Positions 3,700 through 64,000 of a stretch of 64,000 bases of DNA are shown here, piece by piece. The stretch's first letter is position 1. The number at the start of each line of letters is the position of its first letter. Under the pieces are notes generated by a model. That model had not been told where the DNA came from and searched no databases. It worked only from the letters and a program-made list of their open reading frames with translations. Source of the stretch: an uncultured Clostridia bacterium (GTDB lineage: Bacteria; Bacillota; Clostridia; Christensenellales; CAG-917). The stretch spans positions 5,497 to 69,496 of the forward strand of contig CAUTUX010000004.1 in the NCBI GenBank assembly GCA_963542015.1, in the 5' to 3' direction. A program made the translations under genes and the position numbers.

Positions 3700-3787
3700 T
3701 ACAATAAATATATAGCGTAGCGAGTTCAATTGGCAATATAGAACATAATTAAAAAAATTCTTAAAGCAACTTAACATGAGTACTAAA

Positions 3788-3848: not shown

Positions 3849-6650
3849 ATGAAGAGGAGAGAAAATCACAAATTAGAATATGCGATGCTTTTAATTCTAA
3901 TAATTTTGCTTCTCGTAATACTAATACCTGTAACCGTATATGGAATTAGAAACAAACAACAGCCTTATATACCTCCTATAGAAGAAAAGATAAAAGAAAA
4001 AAATCCATATGAAGAATTGGAGAAGCTCTTTAAGTTTAGAAAGCTTGAAGATACTTATGCTATAGAAAAATATATAGGTAAGCTATCAAAAGTAACTATC
4101 CCAACAGAATACAAAGGGCTTAAGGTTAATCAAATAGATGATGAGGCATTTGCAAATGTAGATTTTTTAGAAAAGGTTGATGTATCAAATACAATTGAAG
4201 GAATTGGTAACAAAGCATTTGTTAATTGTACCAATTTAAATGAAATCACATTACAAGAAGGTCTAAAAGAAATATTATCAGATGCATTTTCTAATACTGG
4301 TCTGAGTTCGGCAAAGATTCCAAGTACAGTGAAAAAGATAGACACAAGTGCATTTAAAGAATGCCAAAATTTAACTGAAGTTACACTTGAAGAAGGATTA
4401 AAATCAATAGGTGCTGAAGCATTTTTAGGAACACCAATTAAATCAATTACAATTCCAGGAACAATACAAAATATGGGCGATAGAGTTTTTGAAGGATGCT
4501 ATAATTTGAAAAAAGTTATTTTAGGAGAGGGAATAACAGAAGTAACACCAAGATATTTTAATAGAGCTACACTAGAAGACATAACAATTCCAGGAACAGT
4601 TGAAGTAATAAGAAGTCATACATTTTATTTACTTAATTGTCTAAAAACAGTAACACTCAATAAGGGAGTGAAAAAAATAGAAGAGAGGGCATTCCTAGAA
4701 TCTGCAATTAAATCGATTACAATTCCAGGCACTGTAGAGAAAATTGAGACTTATGCATTTAGTTATTGTAAAAATCTAAAGGAAGTAGTGCTCAATGAAG
4801 GATTAAAGGAAATAGCTGCTGATGTATTCAGATACACAGCAATTGAGTCAATTACTATTCCAGGTACTGTTAAGGAAGTAGGATGGGAAGCATTTGCATT
4901 TTGCGATAATTTAAAAAAGGTAACATTAGGCGAAGGAATAAGCAGTTTTAACAGTAATTATTTTAATGAAAAATCTTTAGAAGAAATAATACTTCCAAGC
5001 ACATTAGAAACAATAGGGGATAATGCATTTGAGAATTGTAAAAAATTAAAATCAGTGGATCTAAAATATGGTTTAAAAACAATAGGGTATGGAGCCTTTA
5101 AGGGAACATCAATTGAATCAATAAGAATCCCAGGAACAGTAGAAGAAATTGGAGATGAAGTTTTTAAAGGATGTAATTTAAAAAAAGTAGTCCTAGGCGA
5201 GGGAATAAAAGAGATAAAATCAAACTATTTCAATAGAGAAACATTAGAAGATATAACAATTCCAGGAACAGTAGAAGAAATTAGAGATAATGCATTTGAG
5301 AATTGTTATAGTTTAAAAAAAGTAGAACTTCATGATGGGCTGAAAAGAATAGGTGTTGCATCATTTGCTAGGACATCACTTAAGTCAATTCTAATACCTA
5401 GTACGGTACAGGAAATAGGAACTGTTGCATTTTATGACTGTCAGAATTTAAAACAAGTAGAACTTTATGATGGATTGAGAACAATAGGAAATGGAGCATT
5501 TAGCGAAACATCAATAGAATCAATAATAATTCCTGGAACTATTACAGCTATGGGGAGTGATGTTTTTGCAGACTGTAATAATTTGAAAAAAGTAGTATTA
5601 GGAGAGGGAATAGAAGAATGTACAGATAATTATTTCAATAAACCAACATTAGAAGATATAACAATTCCAAGTACGGTAGAGAAGATAAATACTGGAGTAT
5701 TTTATGATTCCAAGAATTTAAAAAAAGTTGAACTTCATGATGGATTAAAGCAAATAGAAGATTGTTCTTTTCAATATTCATCAATTCAATCAATTATAAT
5801 TCCAAAAACCGTTGAAAAAATAGGTGCTTCTGCATTTATGGGATGCAATAGTCTAAAAGATGTAACGCTTCAAGATGGACTGAAAAGAGTAGACTATTAT
5901 GCATTTAAAGGAACATTGATAGAAACAATAAGGATTCCAGGCACAATAACATTTGAAAAATTTGGAGATAAAGTTTTCGAAGAATGTGATAATTTAAAAA
6001 AAGTAATTTTAGGAGAAGGAATAAAAGATGTTGTAGATAATTACTTTAATACATCATCATTGGAAGAAATTTCAATTCCTGGCACAGTTGAAGAAATAAA
6101 TGCCTGTACTTTTGAAGATTGCAAAAAATTAAAATCTGTAACGCTTAATGAAGGATTAAAAACAATTTGGGATAGAGCTTTTGAAGAAACATCGATCGAA
6201 TCAATTATACTTCCAAGCACAGTGGAACTTATATATGATCGTGCCTTTGCCGATTGTAAAAAATTAAACTCAGTAATATTGAATAATGGATTAAAAGAAA
6301 TAGGTAAAGGTGCTTTCAGAGGAATAGCAATTGAATCAATTAAGATTCCAGCTACTGTGGTGTATATAGGAGATTATACATTTGGTAAATGTGATAATTT
6401 AAAAGATATAATTTTAGAAGAAGGAATAAAAACAATTGGGGATTTAGCATTTGGTGATGCACCAATTGGATCAATAACAATTCCAAGCACAGTAGAAGTG
6501 ATTGAGAAAGATATATTTGGGAGTAACGACAAGTTAAAAACGATAAATTGTAAAATAAAAAAGAGCTACTATGACACACATCAGACTCAACTTTATGGAT
6601 TAAGAGACTCAGAGTTAAAGGGGCGTAAAATTAACTGGTTAAATGGTTAG
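3849..6650 (+). CDS. BspA-type leucine-rich-repeat (LRR_5-like) surface protein with an N-terminal membrane anchor
   Basis: The start is at ATG 3849, 7 nt after AGGAGG. A hydrophobic anchor (LLILIILLLVILIPVTVYG) is followed by roughly three dozen ~23-aa repeats of the type I-x-IP-x-TV-x-x-IG-x-x-AF-x-x-C-x-x-LK-x-V-x-L. Confidence 0.85.
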   Translation: MKRRENHKLEYAMLLILIILLLVILIPVTVYGIRNKQQPYIPPIEEKIKEKNPYEELEKLFKFRKLEDTYAIEKYIGKLSKVTIPTEYKGLKVNQIDDEAFANVDFLEKVDVSNTIEGIGNKAFVNCTNLNEITLQEGLKEILSDAFSNTGLSSAKIPSTVKKIDTSAFKECQNLTEVTLEEGLKSIGAEAFLGTPIKSITIPGTIQNMGDRVFEGCYNLKKVILGEGITEVTPRYFNRATLEDITIPGTVEVIRSHTFYLLNCLKTVTLNKGVKKIEERAFLESAIKSITIPGTVEKIETYAFSYCKNLKEVVLNEGLKEIAADVFRYTAIESITIPGTVKEVGWEAFAFCDNLKKVTLGEGISSFNSNYFNEKSLEEIILPSTLETIGDNAFENCKKLKSVDLKYGLKTIGYGAFKGTSIESIRIPGTVEEIGDEVFKGCNLKKVVLGEGIKEIKSNYFNRETLEDITIPGTVEEIRDNAFENCYSLKKVELHDGLKRIGVASFARTSLKSILIPSTVQEIGTVAFYDCQNLKQVELYDGLRTIGNGAFSETSIESIIIPGTITAMGSDVFADCNNLKKVVLGEGIEECTDNYFNKPTLEDITIPSTVEKINTGVFYDSKNLKKVELHDGLKQIEDCSFQYSSIQSIIIPKTVEKIGASAFMGCNSLKDVTLQDGLKRVDYYAFKGTLIETIRIPGTITFEKFGDKVFEECDNLKKVILGEGIKDVVDNYFNTSSLEEISIPGTVEEINACTFEDCKKLKSVTLNEGLKTIWDRAFEETSIESIILPSTVELIYDRAFADCKKLNSVILNNGLKEIGKGAFRGIAIESIKIPATVVYIGDYTFGKCDNLKDIILEEGIKTIGDLAFGDAPIGSITIPSTVEVIEKDIFGSNDKLKTINCKIKKSYYDTHQTQLYGLRDSELKGRKINWLNG

Positions 6651-6808
6651 CATCTAAGTATTTTTAGTAATTTTTAAATAATATATCTATAAAATTTAAA
6701 ATTTTCCATAACATCATATCTTAGGTTAAGAAGTTAAGGTTTTGATTTAGTTTGTAAAAGTATGAGGCAATAAAATATAATTAATAATATTGTTTTGAGA
6801 GGTAAATA

Positions 6809-7804
6809 ATGAAATTTCTTGATGATTTATTAAGTAGAGCAAAAGTTTTAAATAAGAAAATAGCTCTTTGTGAAGTTGAAGATGAACGTGTTGTTAGTGC
6901 TGCGGATTATTTGTCATCTAAAGGCATATGTAAAGTAGTCCTAATAGGGAATGAAGAGCAGATTCGCCAACAATTTCCAAGTTTAAAATTGAAGGATGTT
7001 GAATTCTGGGATGTTAAGAAATATGCAAAGACAGAAGATTATATAAATCTTCTTTATGAGTTGAGAAAAGCAAAAGGAGCTACAATTGAATGGGCTAGAA
7101 ATGCTGTTAATACGGATATGTTAACATTTGCAGCACTTGGTCTTAAATCGGGCGATCTTGATGGTATTGTTGCTGGTGCAGTTTTATCATCTGCAGCGGT
7201 TTCTAGAGTTGCATTTCAGATAATAAAGGCAAAGCCAGGACTAAACAGTGTTTCATCATGTTTTGTAATGGTTCCTCCGGAAGGATTTAAGGGGACAAAA
7301 GAGAAAGCAATTATTTTTTCTGATTGTGGAGTTATTCCGTATCCAACAAAAGAACAATTAGTGGATATTGCATTTGCAGCAAAAGACAGTGCTGAAAAGA
7401 TTATTCAAACAAATCCAAGAATAGCGATGTTGTCATTTTCAACCAAGGGAAGTGCTAAACATCCAGCTGTTGAACTTGTACAAGAAGCATTTGAAATGGC
7501 TAAGGCAAAAGACGAGAATTTAGTTATAGATGGAGAAATGCAATTTGATGCTGCTTTTGTTGAAAGTGTAGGAAAACAGAAGGCACCTAATAGTAAAGTT
7601 GCTGGAGAGGCAAATGTATTTATTTTCCCTAACTTAGACGCAGGAAATATAGGATATAAGATAGCTCAAAGATTGGGAAATTTCACGGCTCTTGGACCTA
7701 TTATGCAAGGCTTGGATAAACCAATAAATGATTTGTCTCGTGGATGTAATATGATGGATATAGTATATGTTGCAGCAATTACATGTCTGCAATCACAGGA
7801 GTAA
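6809..7804 (+). CDS. pta: phosphate acetyltransferase
   Basis: 331 aa with family-typical segments (DGIVAGA, SDCGV, NVFIFPNLDAGNIGYKIAQR, INDLSRG). It lies directly upstream of ackA. Confidence 0.9.
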   Translation: MKFLDDLLSRAKVLNKKIALCEVEDERVVSAADYLSSKGICKVVLIGNEEQIRQQFPSLKLKDVEFWDVKKYAKTEDYINLLYELRKAKGATIEWARNAVNTDMLTFAALGLKSGDLDGIVAGAVLSSAAVSRVAFQIIKAKPGLNSVSSCFVMVPPEGFKGTKEKAIIFSDCGVIPYPTKEQLVDIAFAAKDSAEKIIQTNPRIAMLSFSTKGSAKHPAVELVQEAFEMAKAKDENLVIDGEMQFDAAFVESVGKQKAPNSKVAGEANVFIFPNLDAGNIGYKIAQRLGNFTALGPIMQGLDKPINDLSRGCNMMDIVYVAAITCLQSQE

Positions 7805-7809
7805 GAATA

Positions 7810-9009
7810 ATGAAGATTTTAGTATGTAATGCTGGGAGCTCATCACTTAAATATCAGTTGATTGATATGTCAAATGAAAAAGTATTGGTAAAGGGCTTAT
7901 GCGAAAGAATTAATATTGATGGAAGAATTTCGCAGAAGAATATTAATGGTAAACAGTTTAAAAAAGAAGCAACAATGAAGAATCATACCGATGCAATTAA
8001 GCTTGTTATCCAGTCTATAATTGACCCCGAATTTGGGGTAATTAAAGATATAAGTGAAATTGATGCTGTAGGTCATCGTGTTCTTCATTCGGCGGAAGAT
8101 TTTAATGATTCTGTTGTTATCACTGATGAAGTTTTAAAAATATGTGAAAAAAATGTTGAATTGGGACCTTTGCATATGCCAGGTAACATTGCATGCATTA
8201 AGAGTTGTATGGAAATATTAAAAGACAAACCAATGGTTGCAGTTTTTGATACGACATTTCATTCAACCTTACCACCTAAAGCATATATGTACGGAATAAA
8301 ATATGAAGATTATGAAAAATATAGAGTTAGAAAATATGGTTTTCATGGGTCATCGCATAAATTTGTTTCTAGTGAAACAATGAAGTATTTAAAAAATGAC
8401 AAAGCAAAATTGATAATTTGTCATATTGGAAACGGCTCTTCGCTTTCTGCAGTAGACAGTGGTGTTTGTATGGATACAAGTATGGGATTTACACCGTTAG
8501 CTGGGGTTGTAATGGGAACTAGAAGTGGTGATATTGACCCAAGTGCAGTTGATTTTTTGAGAAACAAATTAAATTTATCATCTGAAAAAATGGTCGACTA
8601 CTTAAATAAAGAATGTGGTATGCTCGGCATTTCTGGAGTTAGCTCAGATATGAGAGATGTTGAAAATAAAATGTTTACAGGTGACGAAAGATGCACTTTA
8701 TCAATTGAGATGATTGGATACACAATTAAGAAATATGTAGGAGCATATTTAGCTGTTCTAAATGGAGCCGATGCAATCGTATTTACGGGTGGAATAGGTG
8801 AAAATAGTGACATTATGAGAAAGCTTGTAACAGAGAACATGACAGCATTTGGCATTGAAATTGATGAGAAGAAAAACAATGTTAAAGCGTCTGAAATAAC
8901 AGACATTTCAGGCAAAAAATCAAAGGTTAAGGTTCTCATAGTTCCAACAAATGAAGAGCTCTTAATTGCCCGTGAAACTGCTGAAAAAGTAGCAAAAATG
9001 GCAAAATAA
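7810..9009 (+). CDS. ackA: acetate kinase
   Basis: From ATG 7810 the protein starts MKILVCNAGSSSLKYQL. It also contains GHRVLH, FDTTFH, YGFHGSSH and FTGGIGENS. Confidence 0.95.
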   Translation: MKILVCNAGSSSLKYQLIDMSNEKVLVKGLCERINIDGRISQKNINGKQFKKEATMKNHTDAIKLVIQSIIDPEFGVIKDISEIDAVGHRVLHSAEDFNDSVVITDEVLKICEKNVELGPLHMPGNIACIKSCMEILKDKPMVAVFDTTFHSTLPPKAYMYGIKYEDYEKYRVRKYGFHGSSHKFVSSETMKYLKNDKAKLIICHIGNGSSLSAVDSGVCMDTSMGFTPLAGVVMGTRSGDIDPSAVDFLRNKLNLSSEKMVDYLNKECGMLGISGVSSDMRDVENKMFTGDERCTLSIEMIGYTIKKYVGAYLAVLNGADAIVFTGGIGENSDIMRKLVTENMTAFGIEIDEKKNNVKASEITDISGKKSKVKVLIVPTNEELLIARETAEKVAKMAK

Positions 9010-59138: not shown

Positions 59139-59214
59139 GCAGGTATGGCTCAGTCGGTAGAGCAGTTCACTCGTAATGAACAGGCCGTCAGTTCGATTCT
59201 GACTACCTGCTCCA
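59139..59214 (+). tRNA. tRNA-Thr (anticodon CGT), with encoded CCA
   Basis: GCAGGTA/TACCTGC acceptor stem, GCTC/GAGC D stem, GTTCA-CTCGTAA-TGAAC anticodon arm, GTCAG-TTCGATT-CTGAC T arm. It starts 1 nt after the PAP2 stop codon. Confidence 0.9.
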
Positions 59215-59873: not shown

Positions 59874-60470
59874 ATGACAAAATACACAGAGATATTAAAT
59901 ATTGCAAATTCAAATAATGGACTTATTACAACCAACATGATAGTTGATGCTGGTTATTTAAGAAGTAACATAAATTATCTTTTAAAGTTAGGATTATTAA
60001 TTCGTGTGAGTAGAGGAGTATATAAAATACAAGACGCTGTAGAGGATGAATTTTTAAATGCTCAGACAAAATATAAAAAAGGCGTTTTTTGTTTAGAAAC
60101 TGCGTTATATTTATACAATATGATTGATGAAAAACCGAATAAAATACAGATGACATTTCCAAAGACATATAACTATACTAATCCAAAAAAAGATGGAATT
60201 ATATGCAATAATTCTGTAGAGCCACAATATAGTCTGGGTGTAGAAAATGTTATTTCGCCAAGAGGCAATATTGTACGAGCATATAATTTAGAACGAACAA
60301 TTTGCGATATTTTAAAACCTGTAAAAAATAGAGGACTTAGATTTATAAGGGAAACTTTACAAAAATATATGTTAAAAGAGAATAAAAATATAGCTTTTCT
60401 TTCTCAATGTGCTAGAGATTTGAAAGTTGAAAAAGAACTTAAACTACATCTTGAGTTGCTGACATTATGA
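59874..60470 (+). CDS. AbiEi-like antitoxin/transcriptional regulator (no AbiEii partner present)
   Basis: The N-terminal wHTH GLITTNMIVDAGYLRSNINYLLKLGLLIRVSRGVYKI and the C-terminal CLETALYLYNMID...RAYNLERTICDIL match the AbiEi (COG5340) pattern. Confidence 0.7.
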   Translation: MTKYTEILNIANSNNGLITTNMIVDAGYLRSNINYLLKLGLLIRVSRGVYKIQDAVEDEFLNAQTKYKKGVFCLETALYLYNMIDEKPNKIQMTFPKTYNYTNPKKDGIICNNSVEPQYSLGVENVISPRGNIVRAYNLERTICDILKPVKNRGLRFIRETLQKYMLKENKNIAFLSQCARDLKVEKELKLHLELLTL

Positions 60471-60472
60471 TT

Positions 60473-61432
60473 TTATTTTAATAATTTCTTTTTCCAAAGG
60501 ACTATAGCTAGTACAATACTACAAACTAGAGATAGAGCAATTACAACCCAAAATCCCCATTCTTTACCTTGAAATGGAACTTTCGTATTCATTCCCCAAA
60601 ATGCTGCAAATAAAGCTGGAATAGCTAGAATAAGAGTAATAGAAGTTAAGACTTTCATGACAACATTTAAATTGTTTGAAATTATAGAGGCATATGCATC
60701 CATAGTTCCAGATAAAATATCTCTATAAATATTTGCCATTTCAATAGCCTGTTTATTTTCAATAATAACATCATCTAACAATTCTTTATCTTCATCAAAC
60801 ATTTCTATTATTTTGGTTAATTTTTCGACAACTATTAGATTAGATCTTAATGAAGTAGAGAAGTATACTAATGATTGTTCTAAGTTCATCATTTCAATCA
60901 ATTCTTTATTTTTTGTAGATTTTTCAAGTTCATTTTTTATTCTTTGAGAAGCTTTATCTACCTGACTAAGGTATTGTATGTATTTTTTAGAAATTGTGTA
61001 TTGTAATTGTAATAAAAACCGTGATTTTTTATGAACATTAATCCCTCTAATAAATCTTCCATAAATTAAATCGTTAACAATAGAGGTTTCAGAAAGACAA
61101 ATTGTTATTATCGTTTTTCCTGTATTTATAAATCCAAATGGAATAGTTGAATATGTATAAAGATTTTGATCTTCATCTTCTTCAGTAATTGGAATATCTG
61201 TAAGAATTAATGTTGAATCGTTTTCATAATCGATTCTAGGTCTTTCTTCATCATCAAGTGATGATTTAATTAAGTTTTCTTCTACATTAAATGTCTTGGA
61301 AATAAATTCAATTTCTTTATCTGTTGGATTAGATAAATGTAACCAATGATCGGTGTAATCGTAATTATCTAATAAATCCTCAAAATTGATTGAAACTGTT
61401 GAATTATTTTCTTTTTTAAAAACTTGAATCAT
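60473..61432 (-). CDS. corA: CorA-family divalent metal ion transporter
   Basis: The C-terminus has two TM helices with FWGMNTKVPF (GMN signature), preceded by a cytoplasmic funnel-domain-like N-terminus. Confidence 0.85.
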   Translation of the reverse strand: MIQVFKKENNSTVSINFEDLLDNYDYTDHWLHLSNPTDKEIEFISKTFNVEENLIKSSLDDEERPRIDYENDSTLILTDIPITEEDEDQNLYTYSTIPFGFINTGKTIITICLSETSIVNDLIYGRFIRGINVHKKSRFLLQLQYTISKKYIQYLSQVDKASQRIKNELEKSTKNKELIEMMNLEQSLVYFSTSLRSNLIVVEKLTKIIEMFDEDKELLDDVIIENKQAIEMANIYRDILSGTMDAYASIISNNLNVVMKVLTSITLILAIPALFAAFWGMNTKVPFQGKEWGFWVVIALSLVCSIVLAIVLWKKKLLK

Positions 61433-61573: not shown

Positions 61574-61610
61574 ACAAATAAATAACCATATTAGTGCCTT
61601 TTTTATGCAA

Positions 61611-61640
61611 CTATGCGTAAAATTATTATTTTACGCATAG
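61611..61640. repeat. perfect 13-bp inverted repeat (hairpin) immediately after the rep stop codon
   Basis: ctatgcgtaaaat-tatt-attttacgcatag. It is either a terminator-like element or an origin-associated hairpin. Confidence 0.6.
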
Positions 61641-62789
61641 TTATTGATTATTTATTTCTTTAGTAATTTTTTTAGCTATATTCTCCCCTATTCTTCTGTT
61701 AACTTTAATTTCATAATATTTAATTTTATTAAACTCATCTTCCTTTATAAGAGACATTCCATTTTCTTTAACAAGCTTCTCAATAAGACCAGGAGTGCAA
61801 TAATAGATGTCTGTATTGCGGACATCAAAGTTGCGAGTTCTATAGAAGCGTTTTTCCCCAAATAATGTTGCTGGTTCTTTAGTTATATATTTAGTAAGGT
61901 AGTTTACAATTTTCTTTTGTCTTACATTAGGTTCAATACAAACAACAGTATTAAAACCTCTATCCCATTCCTGGCAATTAAATATCTGATTGTTAAATAC
62001 CGTATAAAGGAACTTTCCATAATCCTTGCTTTTGCTGTTACTATTTCTTGCTGGTTTTAATAAAAGGTCAATATCAGCAATTAATGCATGCAGATGGAAT
62101 CCGCCTTTTTCATGCTCCTCTACTACCGATAATACTTTTACATCCTTATTTATCTTTTGTAGCTCCATCAGAAAATAACGCCATTGTTGTTTTATTGCGT
62201 TTCTATCCATCCTTATAGCTTCATCCTTAAAAGTGAAAGTGCAGAAATATTCCCAGTTGTAGTTCAGAGCGTAATCGTAAAAATTCTTTTTAGCTCTAAC
62301 ATCACCTAAACGAACTGACTTTATCAATTGAGCTAAAGTTGCATTATCATTTATTTTCTCAATCATCTCAGTTTCTTTATTTAGCTTAAAGTTTCTTCCA
62401 GTACTCCGCTCTTGCCAATAAGCATTATCATGAGACATTGCTGAAGTAATCATATCTGACTCATCAGAACAGTTTGCCAGGTCTACTTTTGGCGTTAAAA
62501 ATCCTTCTTCAAAAAAAGCTAATTCAATTTCATTAGTAACATCTGAATACTTAACAATCGTGTTTTTTAATGTTCGATCGACTTTTTTAAAAACTTCATT
62601 TTTATCTTTATAAACTTTGCTATATTTATCTTTTTGAAAAATATCAAATAGACTTCCTTGCATTCCAGACTTTTCATATATCTTAAAGTCTTTTTGATAT
62701 TGCTTATTTATGGGATCTTTAAAAAACTCATCTACTTGCTCTTTATTTAAATTTCCTTTAATTAAATCTTCAAATATTACTTCTTTCAT
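61641..62789 (-). CDS. rep: rolling-circle replication initiator (HUH endonuclease Rep)
   Basis: Motif 1 is FCTFTF, motif 2 (HUH) is GGFHLHALI, and motif 3 is NYLTKYITKE with a Y-x-x-x-Y pair. A strong SD AAGGAG precedes the ATG. Confidence 0.8.
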   Translation of the reverse strand: MKEVIFEDLIKGNLNKEQVDEFFKDPINKQYQKDFKIYEKSGMQGSLFDIFQKDKYSKVYKDKNEVFKKVDRTLKNTIVKYSDVTNEIELAFFEEGFLTPKVDLANCSDESDMITSAMSHDNAYWQERSTGRNFKLNKETEMIEKINDNATLAQLIKSVRLGDVRAKKNFYDYALNYNWEYFCTFTFKDEAIRMDRNAIKQQWRYFLMELQKINKDVKVLSVVEEHEKGGFHLHALIADIDLLLKPARNSNSKSKDYGKFLYTVFNNQIFNCQEWDRGFNTVVCIEPNVRQKKIVNYLTKYITKEPATLFGEKRFYRTRNFDVRNTDIYYCTPGLIEKLVKENGMSLIKEDEFNKIKYYEIKVNRRIGENIAKKITKEINNQ

Positions 62790-62829
62790 TTTTCACTCCT
62801 TTTTCTTTGAAAGACAATAAAAATAAATA

Positions 62830-62845
62830 TGTAAGAATTCTTACA
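62830..62845. repeat. perfect 16-bp palindrome TGTAAGAATTCTTACA between the nick-site hairpin and rep
   Basis: Read directly from the sequence. It lies 41 nt upstream of the rep ATG, a position suited to an operator or Rep-binding site. Confidence 0.5.
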
Positions 62846-62872
62846 CTTTTTTTAAGGTGTTTTTGCAATAGT

Positions 62873-62897
62873 GCTACCATTATCAAGTAATGGTAGC
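62873..62897 (-). other. candidate double-strand origin (dso) nick-site hairpin
   Basis: The minus strand reads GCTACCATT-ACTTGAT-AATGGTAGC, a 9-bp perfect stem. CTTGATA (62887-62881) sits in or at the edge of the loop, on the same strand as the rep sense strand and 84 nt upstream of rep. CTTG/ATA is the nick core of the pC194/pUB110 family and the phiX174 origin. Confidence 0.55.
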
Positions 62898-62970
62898 TTT
62901 AACTATCCTGATGAATTAATACTGACAACCGTTTCGCATTGCTTCATACTAGTTCCCTCCTTCATATATA

Positions 62971-63200
62971 TTCCTGCGTGCGTTGCACGCCTAAGGGTCG
63001 AGCATGCCTCGGCGTTCGCCTCTGGGCATGCTCTTCCTAATTTACGGCTTGCTGCCTCATCGCCGGCGTGGCTAGGGGTCATGCGATCCCTAGCCACCTT
63101 GGTACGACTTTCTGGATCTCTACCAGCTGTCAAGGCGTGAACATAAACGCTAAAGCATTTATCCTTCCCGCCAGCAAAGCTGGAACCTTGACAGCCGTCT
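62971..63200 (-). other. GC-rich multi-hairpin element: candidate single-strand origin (sso) or novel structured RNA
   Basis: A hand count gives 130/230 = 56% GC, against 15/60 = 25% for 62701-62760 inside rep. There are six perfect stems: 63186-63195/63126-63135 (10 bp); 63171-63175/63179-63183 (5 bp); 63143-63150/63155-63162 (8 bp); 63068-63077/63088-63097 (10 bp); 63000-63008/63025-63033 (9 bp); 62976-62981/62985-62990 (6 bp). Confidence 0.5.
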
Positions 63201-63231
63201 GTTTCTTTTATCAATTCCTTCATCGTTATTT

Positions 63232-64000
63232 TCATCTCTTGTCCTCTATATGGTTATATTTAGAGAGGTCACGGATAAAATAACTGTTCTGAGCTTGTAG
63301 CTCCGCTATGGTTGCTCGTGTTGACTCATAGGTAGGTACATCTCCTATTCCTACCTCTTCGCTTCGTGATGCGTCAAAAAACGCTTGATATGCATCTGTC
63401 TTAAATCTGTCTGAATATATCTTCTTTAACATTAGGTAATATTTATGCTCTGTTTTTTCATCCAGCATCCCGTGAGAGACTTCTAAGCGACATTTATATA
63501 GCCCGTATTTATTCAAAATCCGTTCGTTAATTCCATAGATCCAGGATATAAACTTCCTGGCTAAATAATATTTAAGAGAATCATTAGAACGATAAAAAAT
63601 ACGATCAAGGTTATATCGATCAAATAAATTAATACTCCATTCTATAAATACACGCTCAAAATATAACGGGAACACGCATTTATATTCATCACTCTTAATT
63701 ATGCTGATTATGTCAAACAACTCCCGCATATCTGCCTCTAAGGATTCTGGGCGTTGTTCATCTACTAATATCTTGCTATATGGATAGTGATTAATCGTGC
63801 TGGTATGTCTGATTAGCTTTATAAATGCGTTAAAATAATCATTCTTTTGATTAGGTTCATCATCTGTTCTCTTCATCCCTTGCGTTGTTATCTGATTGCC
63901 TCTCTCTTTACCAATCTCTGTTATTGCGAAAAACCCAAAATCAAACACATTTGATAACTGATTGTCTTCTATTATTTTTTTACCTAATCTCAAAAAATCA
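63232..64000 (-). CDS. hypothetical protein, N-terminus probably beyond the window
   Basis: The frame is open to the window edge (in-frame codons precede the TTG at 63993). I recognise no family. Its stop overlaps the next ATG (ATGA at 63235-63232). Confidence 0.5.
   Translation of the reverse strand, partial: DFLRLGKKIIEDNQLSNVFDFGFFAITEIGKERGNQITTQGMKRTDDEPNQKNDYFNAFIKLIRHTSTINHYPYSKILVDEQRPESLEADMRELFDIISIIKSDEYKCVFPLYFERVFIEWSINLFDRYNLDRIFYRSNDSLKYYLARKFISWIYGINERILNKYGLYKCRLEVSHGMLDEKTEHKYYLMLKKIYSDRFKTDAYQAFFDASRSEEVGIGDVPTYESTRATIAELQAQNSYFIRDLSKYNHIEDKR

Follow-up and report, generated by a model that had tools for sequence, protein, structure and literature searches.

A conserved cluster of GC-rich hairpins as a likely single-strand origin of an integrated, inovirus-like rolling-circle element in an uncultured Clostridia bacterium

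A stretch of 64,000 nucleotides (nt) from contig CAUTUX010000004.1 of an uncultured Clostridia bacterium (Christensenellales, CAG-917; assembly GCA_963542015.1), referred to here as the window, carries at positions 62971-63200 a short GC-rich block, the island, which lies upstream of a minus-strand gene for a rolling-circle replication initiator (Rep). The island is a real hairpin cluster with non-coding status, and it is likely to be the single-strand origin (sso) region, that is, the minus- or lagging-strand origin, of an integrated rolling-circle element of ~9.7 kb. On the rep-sense (minus) strand it is placed 79-329 nt 5' of a hairpin exposing the sequence CTTGATA, the putative double-strand origin (dso), and it is extensively paired within the strand. 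A preliminary description of the window, made from the letters alone, had proposed an sso on the rep-sense strand upstream of the dso, a proposal now supported by a conserved non-coding structure, by the strand on which G.T pairs are found and by the resemblance of the first structural domain of the island (Domain I) to the Rfam family RF01691.

The island contains 130 G+C in 230 nt (56.5%), a recount identical to that of the preliminary description, in a window where 230-nt stretches have a mean GC fraction of 0.308 (standard deviation 0.043) and where values of at least 0.48 are reached at 62971-63200 alone. At minimum energy the minus strand folds into exactly the helices proposed beforehand, each of which was found, by folding and by coordinate check, where it had been placed, although the long-range stem, correct as to helix and position, is 12 bp long instead of 10 (CG plus GCTGTCAAGG, paired with CCTTGACAGC plus TG, a second G.T pair included) and the 8-bp hairpin is lengthened by a 3-bp helix, GAA/TTC. 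With RNA parameters the minus strand folds at -102.5 kcal/mol, compared with -76.3 +/- 4.7 for shuffled sequences (z -5.6), and the plus strand at -101.2 kcal/mol (z -6.5), none of 200 shuffles equalling the island; with DNA parameters the values are -56.7 kcal/mol (z -6.3) for the minus and -52.2 kcal/mol (z -5.6) for the plus strand. The comparison with shuffled controls, which the preliminary description had suggested, thus places the island fold far outside expectation on both strands and with both parameter sets (z -5.6 to -6.5); that the plus strand comes close to the minus strand is a necessary property of inverted repeats.

Eleven further loci containing the island region were reached in metagenomes through homologues of Rep. 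Seven more distinct islands are of the window type (L001, L004, L005, L007, to which L008 is identical, L012, L022 and L023), and four belong to a diverged sister type (L009, L010, L011 and L026), in which Rep is 62-63% identical. The islands of the window and of the sister clade have fold z scores of -5.6 to -7.6. More distant relatives (L018/L019, L020, L021 and L027), with a Rep 30-40% identical, each have a hairpin block of their own, raised in GC, on the upstream side of the nick hairpin; these fold with z -6.2 in L020 and z -3.2 in L021, and the GTCAAG/CTTGAC closing stem described below is seen again in L020 and L021. A search with the DNA pattern CCTTGACA...AGAGGCGAACGCC gave 4 + 1 matches in genome and viral contigs, which were set aside as chance (~8 expected, an estimate) and lack the remaining structure; a stricter 29-base island pattern had no match in the Joint Genome Institute (JGI) metagenomes.

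Domain I (63124..63197; this and all following parts are on the minus strand) is a three-way junction in which a 12-bp closing stem, S1 (63197-63186 with 63135-63124), surrounds the hairpins H1 and H2. S1, whose 10-bp version in the preliminary description (GCTGTCAAGG/CCTTGACAGC) spanned 63195-63186 with 63135-63126, has an invariant core, TGTCAAGG/CCTTGACA, and covariation in 4 of its 12 pairs; Domain I is present in the folds and was also recovered independently by RNAalifold. H1 (63171..63183, CCAGC-TTT-GCTGG) keeps its pairing while its letters are free, and is found in three versions: CCAGC/GCTGG, (A)CTTGC/GCAAG(T) in L009, and CCC-GAAA-GGG in L022, the last being, letter for letter, the internal hairpin seen in some seed rows of RF01691. 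H2 (63139..63168) is formed by ATAAATGC-TTTA-GCGTTTAT (63143-63162), with one T.G pair, and by the GAA/TTC extension, which covaries to GAG/CTC; its base, ATAAA/TTTAT, is invariant, and its upper part is weak in L009, where A.A and G.G oppositions occur.

Three hairpins follow Domain I. H3 (63068..63097) is a perfect 10-bp stem, GTGGCTAGGG/CCCTAGCCAC, with a 10-nt loop, present in the folds; among window-clade copies it changes in the loop only, and in the L009/L026 clade its position is taken by another hairpin, of 15 bp including a T.G pair, which again changes in its loop only. H4 (63000..63033) has a 9-bp outer stem, GAGCATGCC/GGCATGCTC, around the core AGAGGCGAACGCCG (63010-63023), which contains a small GGC-GAAC-GCC hairpin and is identical in all copies, while the outer stem in L009 reads GCTGGGCG/CGCCCAGC, both sides having changed in 6 of the 9 pairs. 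H5 (62976..62990) is GCGTGC-AAC-GCACGC; in L009 it becomes GCGTCGC-AA-GCGACGC, with two pairs turned from G-C to C-G and one extra pair, and in L004 it differs in the loop only (AAC to AGA).

Conservation follows the pairing. In the window clade, variation is seen in 3 of 113 paired columns, each of which stays paired, versus 19 of 118 unpaired columns (Fisher p 5e-4), and the 6 differences between the islands of L026 and L009 all lie in linkers or loops. The two clades were compared in a structure-aware, hand-fitted alignment (A4), from which H3 was left out because it is replaced between clades and cannot be aligned. Over its 48 pairs, 99.5% of the cells are paired and 16 pairs have changed on both sides, compared with 2.2 +/- 1.4 in column shuffles (0 of 500 matching the observed 16) and 0-3 in controls with slid partners, where 29-40% are paired. 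Free prediction on A4 with RNAalifold recovered S1, H1, H2, H4 and H5, with 15 compensated pairs. These comparisons show that selection acts on the pairing of the island.

An open reading frame (ORF) of 110 codons (62903-63235, minus strand; 91-92 aa in relatives) spans the island, and a small protein gene, translationally coupled to the gene upstream, would be a reading to which we give hardly any credence. Of 9 variants in the window clade 8 keep the frame open, the start codon overlaps the stop of the upstream gene (ATGA), and the two indels of the clade, an ATA insertion and a shortening of H1 (13 to 10 nt), both preserve the frame, their lengths being multiples of three. Against this, four stops interrupt the corresponding frame of the L009 type, in which no ORF is called, L005 has a TAG at codon 5, and ~18 of the ~21 substitutions in the window clade are non-synonymous and placed where the DNA is unpaired; the 110-aa product has no Pfam or PHROG match. 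An 89-aa open frame also crosses the island on the opposite strand, and long open frames here therefore arise by composition. The preliminary description had set its structure against a coding sequence with no compensatory changes, and the four stops together with the 16 double-changed pairs uphold the structured, non-coding reading.

The strand on which the structure acts is weakly indicated by the wobble pairs. Three G.T wobbles were found, two in the window type and one in H3 of L009, all on the rep-sense strand, which has no A.C opposition, so that the argument for the minus strand made from the T-G pair of H2 in the preliminary description is borne out, in a statistically weak form. This choice of strand cannot tell single-stranded DNA from RNA, because the strand that Rep would displace and the mRNA strand are one and the same, the rep-sense strand. 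Between 62600 and 63400 neither a sigma-70-like promoter on the rep-sense strand nor a terminator was found, so that nothing obvious marks the island as an RNA gene of its own. The invariant 3' arm of S1 includes TTGACA, the consensus of a -35 element; a specific model of a promoter on the single strand was considered and dropped, no convincing -35/-10 arrangement being present on the folded strand. The same arm (CCTTGACAGC, 63126-63135) resembles the nick motif, which is CTTGATA at 62881-62887 and CTTGAC in the nick loop of L027 (~2760-2790), and CTTGA is also found inside a hairpin loop of L018 (~3700-3725). A nick-like or -35-like sequence is thus maintained within the duplex stem S1.

Relatives of Domain I were sought in Rfam, which at the gathering threshold gave two tRNAs in the window and nothing else. 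In a permissive scan, Domain I of the sister type (L011) matched RF01691 on the rep-sense strand at 30.2 bits, the gathering score being 31 (E 0.0055 for 27 kb and all 4227 families; 8.5e-5 in a 421-nt scan), and that of L022 had no RF01691 match in the Rfam scan. An RF01691 model rebuilt from 20 published seed rows and run without filters over 97 kb scored L011 at 27.5 bits (E ~1e-5) and L022 at 21.4 bits (E ~6e-4), both on the rep-sense strand, with antisense scores of 9.6 and 9.2 bits, respectively. The Domain I sequences of the window and of L022 are plainly homologous to each other. The 9-bp closing stem of RF01691, with its core GUCAAC/GUUGAC, is present in the window as GCTGTCAAGG/CCTTGACAGC, where the arms GCUGUCAA and UUGACAGC are letter-identical to those of Lactobacillus plasmid seed rows, with an innermost pair G-C instead of C-G. 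The 3' loop block of the family, GGGAGGAU(U)AAGGAG, is found in the island as GGGAAGGATAAA, split from the 3' arm by a hairpin of 24-26 nt, and of the 5' loop block, GGUA(A/C)(C/G)CGG, just GG is left in the window and GGGUAC in L009.

RF01691, named Bacillus-plasmid RNA and typed as a small RNA, goes back to a motif described as a hairpin with a conserved loop and listed as a probable RNA, which precedes rep or mob genes on plasmids of Bacillus and Lactobacillus and, as an exception, ydcS in B. subtilis (Weinberg et al. 2010, PMC2864571 supplement). Two of its seed rows, NC_001764.1/5114-5169 (pTA1040; positions 315-370 of L029) and NC_001766.1/6354-6409 (pTA1060; 355-410 of L028), fall at the starts of the sso's that Wright, Johnson and Grossman placed at 5109-5307 of NC_001764.1 and 6349-6549 of NC_001766 (PMC4595007), and RF01691 therefore corresponds to the first stem-loop of the pTA1040/pTA1060 class of sso's. 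A similar origin, sso1 of the integrative and conjugative element (ICE) ICEBs1, lies between nicK and ydcS and has been shown experimentally to be orientation-specific and to lower the amount of single-stranded DNA (PMC4595007); the B. subtilis seed row upstream of ydcS matches its position. RF01691 thus probably describes a DNA element and not an RNA. The class comprising the sso's of pBAA1, pTA1015, pTA1040 and pTA1060 is the one named ssoT in the plasmid literature. In the pBAA1 sso three stem-loops are needed, and that of pTA1060 is a 201-nt run of several hairpins, with 58% GC in a plasmid stretch of ~41% GC. The preliminary description had taken the high GC of the island as foreign to its host, and this does not stand, because the proven pTA1060 sso is also a GC-rich block and the GC content is therefore no evidence of foreign origin.

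The island has in common with the ssoT class and with ICEBs1 sso1 that it is a GC-rich, multi-hairpin block of ~200-230 nt within an AT-richer replicon, that it belongs to a rolling-circle element driven by a Rep or a relaxase, and that its match is strand-specific. In both, the first element is a stem, NNUGUCAA(C/G)...(G/C)UUGACANN, closing a large loop that contains GGGA(G/A)GGAU(A/U)AA and a variable internal hairpin, and CCCGAAAGGG is common to L022 and several RF01691 seed rows such as NC_007104. It differs in that the model matches (30.2, 27.5 and 21.4 bits) are made by the sister variants only and not by the window copy, in the ~25-nt hairpin H2 inserted between GGAUAAA and the 3' arm, in the absence from the window of the 5' loop motif GGUA(A/C)CGG, and in H3-H5, which have no detectable similarity to those sso's; moreover, the island belongs to an integrated, phage-like element from an uncultured bacterium of low GC, and the others to plasmids or an ICE of Bacillus and Lactobacillus. 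Judging by these sequences, Domain I would be a diverged relative, distantly connected through the sister variants, whose homology to the window copy is unambiguous, of stem-loop I of the pTA1040/pTA1060 class, the resemblance being limited to this domain. Where the preliminary description could match the island to none of ssoA, ssoU, ssoT or ssoW, the scores of L011 and L022 now give an ssoT-like tie, a distant one that the window copy by itself does not provide.

Several results weigh against an sso of this kind. Domain I of the window had no Rfam match at E<=10 in scans of 701 and 111 nt, and with the rebuilt model the window copy scored 9.9 bits (E 1.9), while chance matches in the window reach 13 bits. 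In the reverse direction, a model of the island Domain I finds neither pTA1060 nor pTA1040, plain local alignment of the island with the sso's of these two plasmids is no better than with shuffles, and blastn ('distant' mode) of the island against 72,556 plasmids (PLSDB) and 50,697 phages gave no match. The covariation is drawn from essentially two deep lineages plus one H1 variant, in a hand-fitted alignment; the ATGA overlap and the frame-keeping indels of the 110-aa ORF are as for a translated one; and no acceptable -10 element is found at 16-18 nt from the TTGACA of S1, on either flank and in either clade. To these may be added that the element proteins other than Rep, discussed below, have no Pfam or PHROG family match, the phage nature of the element being deduced.

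If the island works as an sso, Rep would use the CTTG/ATA site of the 62871-62897 hairpin to nick the rep-sense strand, which it would then displace, and the island would become single-stranded last because it lies just 5' of the nick. Once single-stranded, it would fold into the three-way junction of Domain I, closed by the TGTCAAGG/CCTTGACA stem, and three strong GC-rich hairpins, which may resist coating by single-strand-binding protein and offer a duplex-like landing site from which the host would start primer synthesis for the complementary strand. By analogy with the sso's of Gram-positive bacteria, an RNA primer made by host RNA polymerase is the most likely route (PMC5703833, PMC4595007), a primase route being possible. 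H3-H5, and especially the invariant AGAGGCGAACGCCG core of H4, could provide added sso activity or, should virions be formed by the element, a signal for packaging. What is said here of priming, of its enzyme and of a part in packaging is proposed from what related systems do.

On the minus strand the island is preceded by the 3' part of a large gene and followed by an AGGAGG and a 14-codon ORF, the CTTGATA hairpin, rep, a palindrome and corA. The nick hairpin (62871..62897, minus strand) has the form GCTACCATTA-CTTGATA-ATGGTAGC, with CTTGATA in its loop (TATCAAG on the plus strand at 62881-62887), a sequence known as the nick site of pC194-type replicons (PMC10378824). It is identical in the window, L001, L004, L005, L007-L011 and L026 and one base off in L012; the loop is the same in the distant L020, and the CTTGAC variant is found in L027. 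Rep (61641..62789, minus strand, 382 aa) contains the motifs FCTFTF, HLHALI (HUH) and YLTKYITK and matches PF23343 (REP_ORF2-G2P, the inovirus/plectrovirus type of Rep; E 3e-10) and phrog_3419 (rolling circle DNA replication initiation). Among annotated proteins those nearest to Rep, 26-32% identical over about half the length, are replication initiators of 'bajarodino' and 'Dulem' viruses, one of which, bajarodino virus 16, is recorded under Inoviridae and also encodes Zot and a repressor; exact look-up and protein-pattern scans for Rep gave no match in genome or viral contigs. No GC-rich block is present upstream of the bajarodino virus 16 Rep, nor after the 726-aa homologue in MT835493.

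The large gene encodes a protein of ~723 aa, of which the window holds the C-terminal third (63232..64000, minus strand, running off the window end) and L004 the full length (6032-8203); it ends 4 nt into the 110-aa ORF. The protein has N-terminal membrane segments and a Walker A motif (GTMGTKKT), is 36% identical to its L018 homologue and has no Pfam or PHROG match. An assignment to Zot was tried and not adopted, hhalign having aligned the Walker A motif (P-loop) only, and its AlphaFold model is poor (predicted local distance difference test, pLDDT, 54; predicted template modelling score, pTM, 0.39), with no Foldseek match in the PDB at E<=0.001. Between the island and the nick hairpin, an invariant AGGAGG Shine-Dalgarno sequence (62956-62961, minus strand) precedes the mini-ORF (62903-62947, minus strand, MKQCETVVSINSSG*). 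The Shine-Dalgarno sequence and the length of this ORF are kept while the peptide diverges (MKQCETVVSINSSG in the window, MYRCVMALSFNRRE in L001/L007 and MHYCEMGKYFNQLE* in L009), with Cys4 and Asn11 conserved; it could be a leader peptide for the control of rep or a very small protein of the virion. The window copy is joined in frame to the spurious 110-aa ORF.

The element is not a free plasmid: the comparison of loci shows an integrated one, of ~9.7 kb, next to corA and on its upstream side, since metagenomic contigs found through the corA product include the same chromosomal site with and without it. Its right end in the window (61606..61642) is a palindrome, AACTATGCGTAAAATAATAATTTTACGCATAGTT, which abuts the Rep stop codon and serves as the attachment site; this 34-nt perfect palindrome is present in one copy at the empty sites of L002 (9785-9835), L003 and L006, and occupied sites have a direct repeat of ~22 nt at the far left end of the element (L012, 1580-1608 and 11295-11338). 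From that end the order is a divergent helix-turn-helix repressor, small membrane proteins, proteins of 315, 450 and ~710 aa, a 183-aa protein, the 723-aa protein, the island, the nick hairpin and Rep. A 54-aa coat-like protein and a 33-aa membrane protein are encoded in it. The proteins of 54, 315, 450 and ~710 aa have in common an N-terminal membrane segment followed by (K/N)GFK (e.g., ILLIIFLGG..GLG.A.KGFK; L004 927-5376, L007 1143-1307), which suggests a paralogous family of membrane-anchored proteins, possibly of the virion, that lacks relatives in the databases. Taken together, the gene content would be that of an inovirus-like prophage, that is, of the filamentous-phage type.

An integrase gene is unrecognisable in the window clade, whereas in the more distant L021 Rep is followed by a tyrosine integrase; integration may be carried out by a host Xer-type recombinase or by Rep itself. 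A repeat of 150-190 nt, ~80% identical between copies, is found near the insertion site, downstream near a PAP2 gene and inside the element (L002 9468-9654; L004 445-515 and 11724-11909; L007 1781-1930; L012 3461-3607), and may be a small mobile or intergenic repeat. Beside the insertion site the window has a tRNA-Thr(CGT) (59139-59214) and, within 59874-61432, an AbiEi_4 antitoxin-like gene and corA. In L009 and L010 the AbiEi gene is missing between corA and PAP2, so that the flank itself is variable.

Two well-known origin regions are comparable with the island. In the Ff phages (f1/M13/fd) a hairpin block likewise lies, on the viral strand, directly 5' of the site nicked by Rep and of the gene for replication, and works only as single-stranded DNA. 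The primer at the Ff minus origin is made by host RNA polymerase. The Ff intergenic region is laid out as packaging signal, (-) origin and (+) origin (PMC11962056). The island differs from it in having no sequence similarity (blastn against phages), a nick motif of the pC194/phiX174 type, CTTGATA, in place of the GTTCTTT/AATA of Ff, and a 14-codon ORF between hairpins and nick site, and its element is known here from sequence and not from virions. The ssoA origin (palA) of pT181-, pE194- and pLS1-type plasmids is a folded single-stranded DNA element of ~160 nt recognised by RNA polymerase (PMC5703833). The TAGCGT of the window (63147-63152, minus strand), within H2 and partly in the hairpin loop, equals its CS-6 hexamer, TAGCG(T/A) in a terminal loop, and had been offered in the preliminary description as a hint of ssoA, which has to be withdrawn: the hexamer is CAGCGA in L009 and L026, and an assignment to ssoA through CS-6 was rejected because it is not conserved. 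The 5-mer (T/C)AGCG has a chance expectation of ~0.5-1 per such region (an estimate), and blastn gave no plasmid match.

Among the other explanations, a packaging signal or another recognition site on the single-stranded DNA of a filamentous phage, with hairpins such as H4 bound by virion or assembly proteins in the manner of Ff hairpin A, is improbable as the function of the whole island, and packaging as an exclusive explanation is unlikely; a packaging role can coexist with an sso role of Domain I. The order of a morphogenesis-type gene, hairpin block, nick hairpin and Rep mirrors that of the Ff intergenic region (PMC11962056), relatives of Rep occur in records classed as Inoviridae, such as the Zot- and repressor-encoding one mentioned above, L021 has a weak Zot adjoining its hairpin block, and small coat-style membrane proteins are encoded in the element; in addition, the invariant core of H4 within a covarying outer stem suggests a loop recognised by a protein. 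On the other side, no virion protein was identified by family or fold among the element proteins, the island has no similarity to the packaging-signal consensus of Xanthomonas inoviruses, and Domain I resembles sso's of plasmids and ICEs, which are not packaged. Palindromic operators or cruciforms in double-stranded DNA, working as a Rep enhancer or as binding sites for a regulator, would fit the fact that every stem is an inverted repeat in the duplex and the likeness of the S1 3' arm CCTTGACA to the nick motif (CTTGATA here, CTTGAC in L027). Such a feature is nevertheless very improbable: stem sequences are swapped wholesale between clades with complementarity kept, which therefore points to selection for folding and not for a fixed protein-binding sequence, and, with G.T pairs confined to one strand, the opposite cruciform arm would have A.C mismatches.

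A structured RNA, whether a small RNA or a cis-acting segment (for stability, processing or translational control) of the operon mRNA that separates the 723-aa gene from the mini-ORF and rep, we likewise regard as improbable. The folding strand is the mRNA-sense one, the island lies between co-directional genes and is followed by the AGGAGG and the 14-codon ORF, so that its transcription is very probable, and covariation alone cannot separate RNA from single-stranded DNA; RF01691 is, besides, catalogued as a small RNA in Rfam, and the Bacillus-plasmid motif stands as a probable RNA in the list of Weinberg et al. These points are opposed by the lack of a terminator and, on the rep-sense strand, of a promoter-like site in and around the island (62600-63400), by the lack of any Rfam family match besides the sso-coincident RF01691, and by the RF01691 members with experimental data, which act as DNA origins. 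The long stems are nearly all Watson-Crick (3 wobbles in ~58 pairs) and loops and linkers drift freely, a pattern that seems more like that of DNA hairpins than that of an RNA core binding a ligand or a protein. It is also quite doubtful that the island is a six-helix non-coding RNA of ~230 nt, belonging to an undescribed family of inovirus-like prophages in uncultured low-GC bacteria and acting, e.g., in the control of rep or of the mini-ORF or in phage-host interaction, in which case the resemblance to plasmids would reflect an overlooked shared RNA function.

As an sso, a hairpin-rich region upstream of the dso of a rolling-circle element is what a specialist would expect. What is new is the architecture, with the inserted hairpin H2 and three unrelated hairpins downstream, the phage-like host element in an uncultured bacterium of ~30% GC, and the bridge between plasmid or ICE origins and inovirus-type elements. 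Few sequence classes of sso have been described, and sso's decide where rolling-circle plasmids, ICEs and single-stranded DNA phages replicate. The coincidence of RF01691 with proven DNA origins bears on the annotation of that family, and the island, as a compact DNA structure supported by covariation, is a potential portable sso or packaging signal for low-GC hosts. If the reading as an sso is true, the pBAA1/pTA1060/ICEBs1 type of origin would extend to a phage-like element of a very AT-rich uncultured bacterium, which suggests that sso modules may be exchanged among plasmids, ICEs and filamentous-type prophages.

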